Of a stretch of 47,785 nt of DNA, positions 23,521 through 24,333 are shown piece by piece; positions within the stretch are counted from its first letter, which is position 1, and each line of letters starts with the position of its first letter. The stretch lies in IMG/VR virus record IMGVR_UViG_2529292853_000006. One strand, written 5' to 3'. The notes under the pieces are model-generated. The model had not been told where the DNA came from. It did no database searches and worked only from the letters and a program-made list of their open reading frames with translations. The translations under genes were made by a program, and so were the position numbers. Origin of the DNA: a virus. Lineage: Duplodnaviria > Heunggongvirae > Uroviricota > Caudoviricetes.

Positions 23521-23800
23521 TTCTCAATCTCTCGATGGCGCAGCGCAGCAGATGCCAGTTGTTCAGGCTGACGAATAAAGTATAAATAAACTGGCTATGG
23601 TGTAAAGCCCCACATAGCATGAACAAACACTACATATCAAATAGCTGGTACAAGGATAGAAATACGACATTTATTATTAAAAACGATTAGATAAATTACA
23701 TTTTAATGTTATGCAAAAGTTCTTTTTTATCATAACATTTCAATAAAAGCATTACAGATGCAATCATCCCGTCATCATCAATTATTTAAGGTGGTTAAAC

Positions 23801-23887
23801 ATGGAAAATAACAAGTTCGCACATCTCGCTCCTTTTTTATCCGTAATCCTTTTCGCTTGTTGTTTTATATGGGCATTATTTTTATAA
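23801..23887 (+). CDS. candidate small hydrophobic peptide (28 aa)
   Basis: MENNKFAHLAPFLSVILFACCFIWALFL; AAGGTGG SD 6 nt upstream of the ATG; single predicted TM segment; lies in an AT-rich region. Confidence 0.35.
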   Translation: MENNKFAHLAPFLSVILFACCFIWALFL

Positions 23888-24290
23888 AGTAGCCACATGA
23901 TAAGTTGCTGGAATCATATTTCCCACTCAAGTCATTAACATTTGATAAGATATATCTAAAAGGACGCCTTTACATTATTTATGTGTATATAATTTATTTA
24001 TATACACAGTAAAGGTATCCTGGGAAAATATTTATCGTTAAAAAATACATCATAAATAATTAAGCTGAAATTTCAGAACACAACTAATACACACAATAAG
24101 GTTCAGTAACAATAATCTATGTGGACTACATCGAGATTTTTTGATTAAACTTTAATAACTTATTCCTAACACACAGAATGCATAAACTAAAAGTAAAACA
24201 AATAGTTATACGAAAAACAACCATATTTATTATATCTTCTCCTCTAATCAACATATCAATTATGTGTTTCATAACAGCTTGACATAACCA

Positions 24291-24323
24291 TCAAAAACAC
24301 GCATTTATAATGCATGTTTTTGA
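24291..24323 (+). promoter_or_regulatory. 33-bp palindromic operator overlapping a TATAAT -10 (NsrR/Rrf2-type candidate)
   Basis: TCAAAAACA cgcatt TATAAT gcatg TGTTTTTGA; perfect 9-bp outer arms; ATGCAT-type inner half-sites; directly upstream of the YeaR-like gene. Confidence 0.45.
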
Positions 24324-24333
24324 TGAGGTGGTT

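Follow-up and report, generated by a model that had tools for sequence, protein, structure and literature searches.

Small single-pass inner-membrane proteins of Escherichia coli, such as YohP, YkgR, YoaJ/YoaK and MgtS, have come to light through searches that targeted small open reading frames (sORFs) and through ribosome profiling. The 28-codon ORF described here, located in an intergenic spacer of a lambdoid prophage, resembles the YohP/YkgR/YoaJ/MgtS class in having a length of at most 50 residues, a single predicted helix that makes up most of the peptide, its own Shine-Dalgarno (SD) sequence in intergenic DNA, and conservation within a narrow clade. Similar to members of that class, it is skipped by gene callers, probably because it is shorter than 90 nt. 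It differs from them in showing no likeness to Pfam, NCBIfam or PHROGs families and in lying on a prophage segment that is missing from K-12, and its product is a prediction from sequence.

Type I toxins (Hok/Gef, Ibs, ShoB, TisB, DinQ and ZorO) are similar in that the ORF would also yield a short hydrophobic prophage peptide encoded near hokD and relBE; moreover, the peptide ends in hydrophobic residues, as do Ibs and ShoB. Unlike these toxins, it has no identified antisense or divergent antitoxin RNA, no SD-occluding leader, no repeats or multiple copies, and no family match. Compared to the lambdoid morons and lysogenic-conversion genes, the ORF likewise runs opposite to the surrounding operon, is AT-rich and sits at a mosaic boundary beside a slot of exchanged cargo; however, it is not itself exchanged cargo but stays with the backbone block as the neighbouring cargo changes. 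The slot between the first nin-region gene(s) and hokD is shared with rem of the K-12 Qin and BL21 prophages, which differs in being an 83-aa gene on the opposite strand with an unrelated sequence. Both K-12 MG1655 and BL21(DE3) carry rem at this position and lack the small ORF, which is plausibly why small-protein surveys based on K-12 missed it. In BL21, rem starts 66 bp from a 92-aa gene, thus the conserved control block described below does not lie between them. YlcH of DLP12 was considered as a positional analogue and rejected, as it is co-directional with ybcN and overlaps it instead of being divergent.

The stretch of DNA analysed (47,785 nt, hereafter the window) is an E. coli prophage, lambdoid and Rac-like, and many complete genomes contain the DNA at 100% identity. 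Its gene order comprises kilR, sieB, ydaF, HTH repressors, ydaT, a DUF977 gene, a cargo island, the nin/Q cluster, lysis genes and trkG. The cargo island consists of BCCT, DUF2254, LysR, gamma-glutamylcyclotransferase, MFS and DUF1971 genes, and the nin/Q cluster of DUF1367, DUF1364/YbcO and DUF1133/Q genes. The small ORF lies between the DUF1367 and DUF1971 genes, in the following arrangement.

22921..23520, minus strand: DUF1367 gene, the left neighbour and first nin/Q gene, followed by YbcO/DUF1364 and DUF1133/Q
23521..23800, no strand assigned: upstream part of a conserved ~370-bp intergenic block, common to all ORF-bearing prophages
23579..23606, minus strand: promoter-like TTTACA-16-TATACT (10/12 matches), directed toward the DUF1367/nin genes and divergent from the small ORF
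23705..23739, plus strand: conserved inverted repeat AATGTTATG ... CATAACATT, 60-95 nt 5' of the ATG
23788..23794, plus strand: Shine-Dalgarno sequence AAGGTGG, 6 nt 5' of the ATG at 23801
23801..23887, plus strand: 28-codon small ORF, ATG to TAA, encoding MENNKFAHLAPFLSVILFACCFIWALFL
23888..24288, no strand assigned: AT-rich DUF1971-specific spacer, absent from the hokD and S8-peptidase contexts
23982-24008, inside the DUF1971-specific spacer: perfect 11-bp palindrome TGTGTATATAA/TTATATACACA with a 5-nt gap
24289..24325, no strand assigned: near-perfect palindrome of 17+3+17 nt, CATCAAAAACACGCATT / AATGCATGTTTTTGATG, over a TATAAT and directly 5' of the DUF1971 start
24334..24672, plus strand: DUF1971 (YeaR-like) cargo gene, the right neighbour

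The original prediction had described an ATG at 23801 preceded by AAGGTGG, opening a 28-residue hydrophobic ORF with a single membrane-length segment in an AT-rich spacer that holds no annotated gene, and these elements were all recovered. The start and SD are present exactly as described; the GC content is 0.26-0.31 over 23600-24350 versus ~0.5 in the flanking genes, and RefSeq/PGAP leaves the interval between 23520 and 24334 blank in the listed genomes with an identical region. In the predicted peptide, residues 1-9 form a polar N-terminal head, and the remaining 19 (residues 10-28) a hydrophobic segment long enough to span a membrane. The highest Kyte-Doolittle mean over 18 residues is 2.49, and the hydrophobic segment is kept in 15/15 peptide variants. 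As for the flanking genes, the right-hand one had been called YeaR-like and is indeed a DUF1971 gene resembling K-12 yeaR, whereas the left-hand one had been mislabelled as YbcN-like: it is a DUF1367 gene (PF07105), and K-12 YbcN is NinB-like.

Within the spacer, this is the sole ATG ORF of at least 28 aa with a 5-nt SD match. T-rich DNA yields hydrophobic residues by default, and an SD-preceded ORF of at least 28 aa arises in 15% of 3,000 dinucleotide-preserving shuffles; in a post hoc test, 0.3% of these shuffles give such an ORF together with an equally hydrophobic 18-residue stretch. Among 157 copies the SD reads AAGGTGAG in 77, AAAGTGAG in 42, AAGGTGG in 33 and AAAGCGAG in 5, which indicates that the site is kept in every copy, though in a weaker form (AAAGTGAG or AAAGCGAG) in ~30% of them. 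The promoter scan reported no plus-strand sigma-70 site above its threshold 5' of the ORF, and the window version has no clear terminator 3' of it. In the S8-peptidase context, a strong plus-strand intrinsic terminator (15 pairs with a T-rich tail) begins ~15 nt past the stop codon, so that the ORF would form a self-contained unit there; in the hokD context, the hokD terminator lies ~20 nt downstream of the stop.

Sequence searches placed the ORF in a large number of E. coli genomes. Sensitive blastn with 23700-24000 gave matches in 1,174 of 5,426 complete genomes, and the reciprocal search with the hokD-type version gave 1,177, of which 1,173 cover at least 80% of the 126-nt query. About 460 genomes match the entire 23700-24000 query and represent the DUF1971 context. 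In ~700 further genomes the match is 72-80% identical and limited to 23781/23786-23888 or to 23700-23888; the shorter island of homology corresponds to the SD plus the ORF and halts one base past the stop codon. These ~700 genomes carry the 28-codon frame with identical start, length and stop (e.g. MENNKSAHYAPFLSVILFVLCCVWALFL); in the hokD type it is flanked by the first nin-region gene and by hokD, the latter in convergent orientation. Conservation in related strains, on which the original prediction had staked the ORF, is thus borne out, with intact copies in ~1,175 E. coli genomes in varied contexts. Damaged copies are rare (E. coli Z1323PEC0013, locus L168, and hits H140 and H167). Truncated matches occur in 4 of the 1,177 genomes, and at least one genome, Z1323PEC0013, has a frameshifted copy, in which codon 23 has lost 1 nt and an IS421 insertion is adjacent.

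A scan of GTDB with one genome per species, using a degenerate mid-ORF codon pattern, also found the ORF in Shigella flexneri and Escherichia ruysiae, alongside three chance hits. The family is limited to Escherichia/Shigella and its divergence is low; in such a narrow clade many copies are identical by descent. The ORF is present as a single copy per prophage. The peptide gave nothing above noise against Pfam, NCBIfam, PHROGs, PADLOC and PDB sequences; in Pfam no family matched even at E up to 10, Hok/Gef included, and K-12 HokD showed no visible similarity to it. Five peptide variants were looked up by exact match in a collection of 15 billion proteins, which contained none of them, and the peptide string is absent from the literature searched, as it is from the supplementary files of a Sakai sORF paper.

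When 40 distinct versions were aligned, the interval 23521-23887, which reaches from the left gene's start codon to the TAA of the small ORF, proved to be one homologous ~370-bp block. Homology between prophages ends 1-2 nt past the TAA, and the sequences beyond are unrelated to each other, with at least four right-hand contexts: convergent hokD, DUF1971, S8 peptidase and others. Among 159 loci, the right neighbour is hokD in ~100, DUF1971 in 30 (22 plain cases, two whose left flank is too short to classify, and six with DUF1971 followed by hok), an S8 peptidase operon in 14, and something different in the rest. On the left, the block adjoins DUF1367 in some loci and a 92-aa protein plus DUF968 in the others, and left and right context types are found in all combinations. 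A homologous block that runs to the stop codon, followed by unrelated right sides, indicates that the ORF belongs to the backbone block and that the junction falls at its stop. The ORF had been placed in the spacer at the phage/cargo junction; a junction does exist, at 23887/23888, but the ORF is the last element of backbone block 23521-23887 and not part of the cargo side. Judging from these comparisons, only 23888-24333 is specific to the DUF1971 cargo. The original prediction also proposed, from its AT-richness, that this boundary may be silenced by H-NS.

The slot that follows the stop codon swaps its cargo among prophages (loci L002-L004, L127 and L128). It holds hokD with relBE in L003; hokD, then an ATP-dependent nuclease and a cytosine methyltransferase in L004; an S8 peptidase and an FtsH-annotated gene in L127; and DUF1971 followed by a truncated hok in L128. 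A hok remnant was sought 3' of the DUF1971 gene of the window and not found, as the homology to the DUF1971-hok segment of L128 stops at 24673. No feature within 23888-24288 proved to be conserved. The palindrome at 23982-24008 has three mismatches in L126/L128, where a 56-bp insertion follows 14 nt further on, thus it is probably not a conserved element.

The reading frame itself is strictly maintained. All 157 SD-anchored copies consist of an ATG, 27 codons and a TAA; the anchor lies outside the coding part, which was therefore unconstrained. A pattern search of IMG/VR found no copy with a different distance from the start to the 3' end, and the neighbouring flanks of ~100 nt and 50 nt fall into 2-5 length classes, compared to one for the ORF. 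The copies comprise 18 nucleotide haplotypes and 14 peptides, and no frame other than +0 is free of internal stops in all of the haplotypes. When these 18 haplotypes, the strictly unbiased set, are joined in a minimum spanning tree, 15 changes are synonymous and 23 non-synonymous, where a synonymous fraction of 0.21-0.28 would be expected; the excess has a p value of 0.0065-0.08 depending on the transition bias, and of 0.03-0.08 at realistic values of that bias. Addition of the most divergent copy gives 24 versus 27 changes (expected fraction 0.24, p = 2e-4), the largest synonymous excess of the six frames, and a pairwise comparison of the window type with the hokD type gives a pN/pS of 0.2-0.4. 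The distribution of changes over the codon positions (7/14/17) is not significant (p = 0.125).

At the residue level, replacements in the ORF are conservative (A/V, V/I, L/F, F/C and L/V), and the invariant residues are M1-N4, H8, P11, L13, S14, I16-F18, C21, W24, A25, F27 and L28. The variable positions show a helical periodicity with a best angle of 100-110 degrees, which is suggestive and not significant (p about 0.15). Between the window and L126/L128, whose spacers are ~95% identical, all five differences in the ORF fall in three amino-acid-changing codons (K5N, F6Y and C20G), and conservation is no higher within the ORF than in its flanks. Altogether, the selection signal is modest, and we consider it probable that the 28-codon frame is a translated gene. 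A conserved antisense ORF (38 aa in the window) was rejected as an alternative, because it starts beyond the conserved block and the types do not share the same open antisense frame.

Upstream of the ORF, highly conserved sub-blocks of 23521-23800 alternate with variable ones that bear indels, as seen both in the alignment and in the length classes of the flanks. The TTTACA-16-TATACT site at 23579-23606 is identical in L003 and L127 and invariant in the 40-version alignment. Its position, upstream of the DUF1367 gene or else of the 92-aa/DUF968 genes, points to a possible internal promoter of the nin/Q cluster. The inverted repeat at 23705-23739 could act either as a plus-strand 5'-UTR hairpin or as an operator. 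Variants of its right arm in relatives (C to T and A to G, two events only) keep pairing only as G-U on the plus strand. In RNAalifold, 55 distinct versions gave -13 kcal/mol over ~270 nt of the plus strand; a hairpin of 8-9 bp, far upstream, was all that recurred consistently, the SD lacked consistent pairing, and no convincing consensus structure of the plus strand over the ORF or the SD was found. Rfam 15 gave nothing above noise in 23300-25500, the best score being 24.9 bits with a plant miRNA model whose gathering threshold is 100. In L003 and L127, a hairpin AACCCT-ATC-AGGGTT sits ~35-50 nt 5' of the ATG and has no counterpart in the window type. A compensatory variant, AATCCT...AGGATT, occurs among the hokD-type prophages. 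Read on the minus strand, the hairpin is followed by TTATTTCAG and was flagged as terminator-like; it may be a nin-type terminator.

These upstream elements bear on how the ORF should be read, since the whole ~370-bp block might be conserved as cis-regulatory DNA or RNA (leftward promoter, terminator-like hairpins and operators) that controls the entry of transcription into the nin/Q genes, the frame being an incidental T-rich open stretch at the edge of the block. The well-conserved minus-strand promoter-like site with 10/12 matches, the minus-strand terminator-like hairpins in the hokD and S8 versions and the conserved inverted repeat fit such a role, as do sub-blocks without an ORF that are conserved as well as the ORF or better, the modest selection signal with replacement codons only in the close pair, and the lack of a plus-strand promoter in the scan. 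It does not account for the retention of the ATG, the SD spacing, the frame and the TAA in every haplotype next to segments that gain indels, for the four independent mosaic junctions directly past the stop codon, or for the peak of the synonymous excess in exactly the +0 frame; furthermore, neither an Rfam family nor a convincing consensus RNA structure covers the ORF. We regard a purely cis-regulatory block as somewhat unlikely, yet the foremost of the alternatives. Truncation would offer another account of the edge position: the ORF would be what cargo insertion left of a longer gene, an N-terminal stub with its signal or transmembrane segment, in line with its place exactly at the recombination junction and with a weak, sub-threshold resemblance of the peptide to lipoprotein or spanin signal regions (14.4 bits for the NCBIfam Lp6.6 signal model, cut-off 35). 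However, the C-terminus WA[LV]FL-TAA lies within conserved sequence in every context, so that the stop was not created by the insertions, and when 50,697 phage records and 72,556 plasmid records were searched by tblastn, only 28-codon copies, derived from E. coli prophages, and no longer relative came up. A lipoprotein signal was likewise discarded: the L-F-A-C of the window is replaced by F-V-L-C or V-F-C-C in commoner types, and position -1 is L in the hokD type, hence no consistent lipobox, and cleavage would leave just 6-8 residues as the mature chain. A remnant is accordingly the least credible of the readings, and we hold it to be highly improbable.

The peptide might also be a membrane-damaging type I toxin, as the original prediction had suggested from its size, with translation curbed by a cis-antisense RNA from a minus-strand promoter over the start codon. 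The -35 element would be TTTCCA, the reverse complement of TGGAAA within ATGGAAAA, and the -10 element in relatives either TATGAT or CATAAT; in the window it would be AATAAT, at a spacing of 15 nt. Size and composition (28 aa, one hydrophobic helix) would suit a toxin, toxin-antitoxin genes are close by (convergent hokD in ~100/159 loci, with relBE nearby), and the promoter-like TTTCCA-16-TATGAT on the minus strand overlaps the ORF start in the hokD and S8 versions; a possibly long 5' UTR with a conserved hairpin and the weakened SD in ~30% of copies point in the same direction. On the other hand, this promoter has just 9/12 matches in AT-rich DNA, where two such sites were found and 1.6 expected by chance, its -35 is dictated by codons 1-3, and at the 15-nt spacing of the window the promoter scan reports no such site. 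No terminator for an antisense RNA is conserved across types, no conserved structure sequesters the SD, and the single-copy gene matches no known toxin family. Rfam detected no antisense RNA, and consensus folding no conserved 5'-UTR structure, that would back the toxin proposal, which is, in our judgement, unlikely. A related thought starts from hokD itself: in about two thirds of the loci the small ORF converges on hokD across a shared bidirectional terminator, and read-through of a small-ORF transcript would be antisense to the hokD mRNA. The peptide or the rightward transcript might then be the missing partner of the Sok-less hokD, or the peptide a new type I toxin or anti-Hok membrane peptide; we find this quite doubtful, and either version, if true, would establish a new family of small genes at a hot spot for cargo and defence in E. 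coli prophages.

Roughly one in five complete E. coli genomes has the frame intact, in every case bordering a cargo slot, which argues that the frame is probably an overlooked small membrane-protein gene. For the more specific reading, a real gene for a small single-pass membrane peptide that belongs to the backbone of Rac/Qin-type lambdoid prophages, we judge the chances to be even. Such a gene would be transcribed rightward, antisense to the early-right operon that runs from replication through nin to Q, from a conserved divergent control region whose other arm would be the leftward promoter-like site before the nin genes. This kind of divergent antisense layout is typical of prophage genes that are expressed independently of lytic transcription. 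The product would have a short polar cytoplasmic head (MENNK-AH-) and one membrane-spanning helix reaching the C-terminus, and might insert into the inner membrane of the lysogen and act there as a small membrane modulator. It would represent a moron-like accessory function that stays with the backbone while the adjoining cargo is exchanged. If translated, the ORF would give ~22% of the complete E. coli genomes a small membrane protein that has gone unrecorded. It is a candidate and not a surprise, since conserved sORFs with such a hydrophobic product are common. Independently of its product, the ORF marks to the nucleotide the left edge of the Rac/Qin-type cargo slot, and can serve as a landmark for mining prophage cargo such as hokD/relBE, the YeaR-like gene, or the S8 peptidase with the FtsH-annotated gene.

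On the cargo side of the junction, the palindrome at 24289-24325 appears to be an operator-like site of the DUF1971 cargo gene, outside the small-ORF unit. Its core, GCATTTATAATGCAT, resembles a stretch, AAATGGTATTTAAAATGCAAATT, upstream of K-12 yeaR. The core also fits the 11-1-11 layout of NsrR sites (PMC3887101). Given the yeaR-like core and this layout, the DUF1971 cargo gene may, by analogy, be regulated by nitric oxide like yeaR.

Further to the right, a second hydrophobic small ORF is found on the minus strand at 24887-24976, with a GTG start and an AGGAGG SD 5 nt upstream (MLVLKCALAIAAVMAIYCLAVVLMERLSD). The block that contains it, 24872-25120, is conserved in 1,949 E. coli genomes and is unannotated among those listed, with the exception of BL21; in BL21(DE3), the homologous DNA is assigned to the 3' end of a DUF977 gene and the region upstream of hokD. 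Elsewhere in the window, three Rfam matches exceed the gathering threshold: the RalA antitoxin sRNA of the Rac ralR/ralA pair at 40776-40954 (minus strand), STnc100 at 21159-21345 (minus strand), just downstream of the Q-like gene, and the ALIL frameshift pseudoknot of an IS3-type element at 47481-47597 (plus strand).
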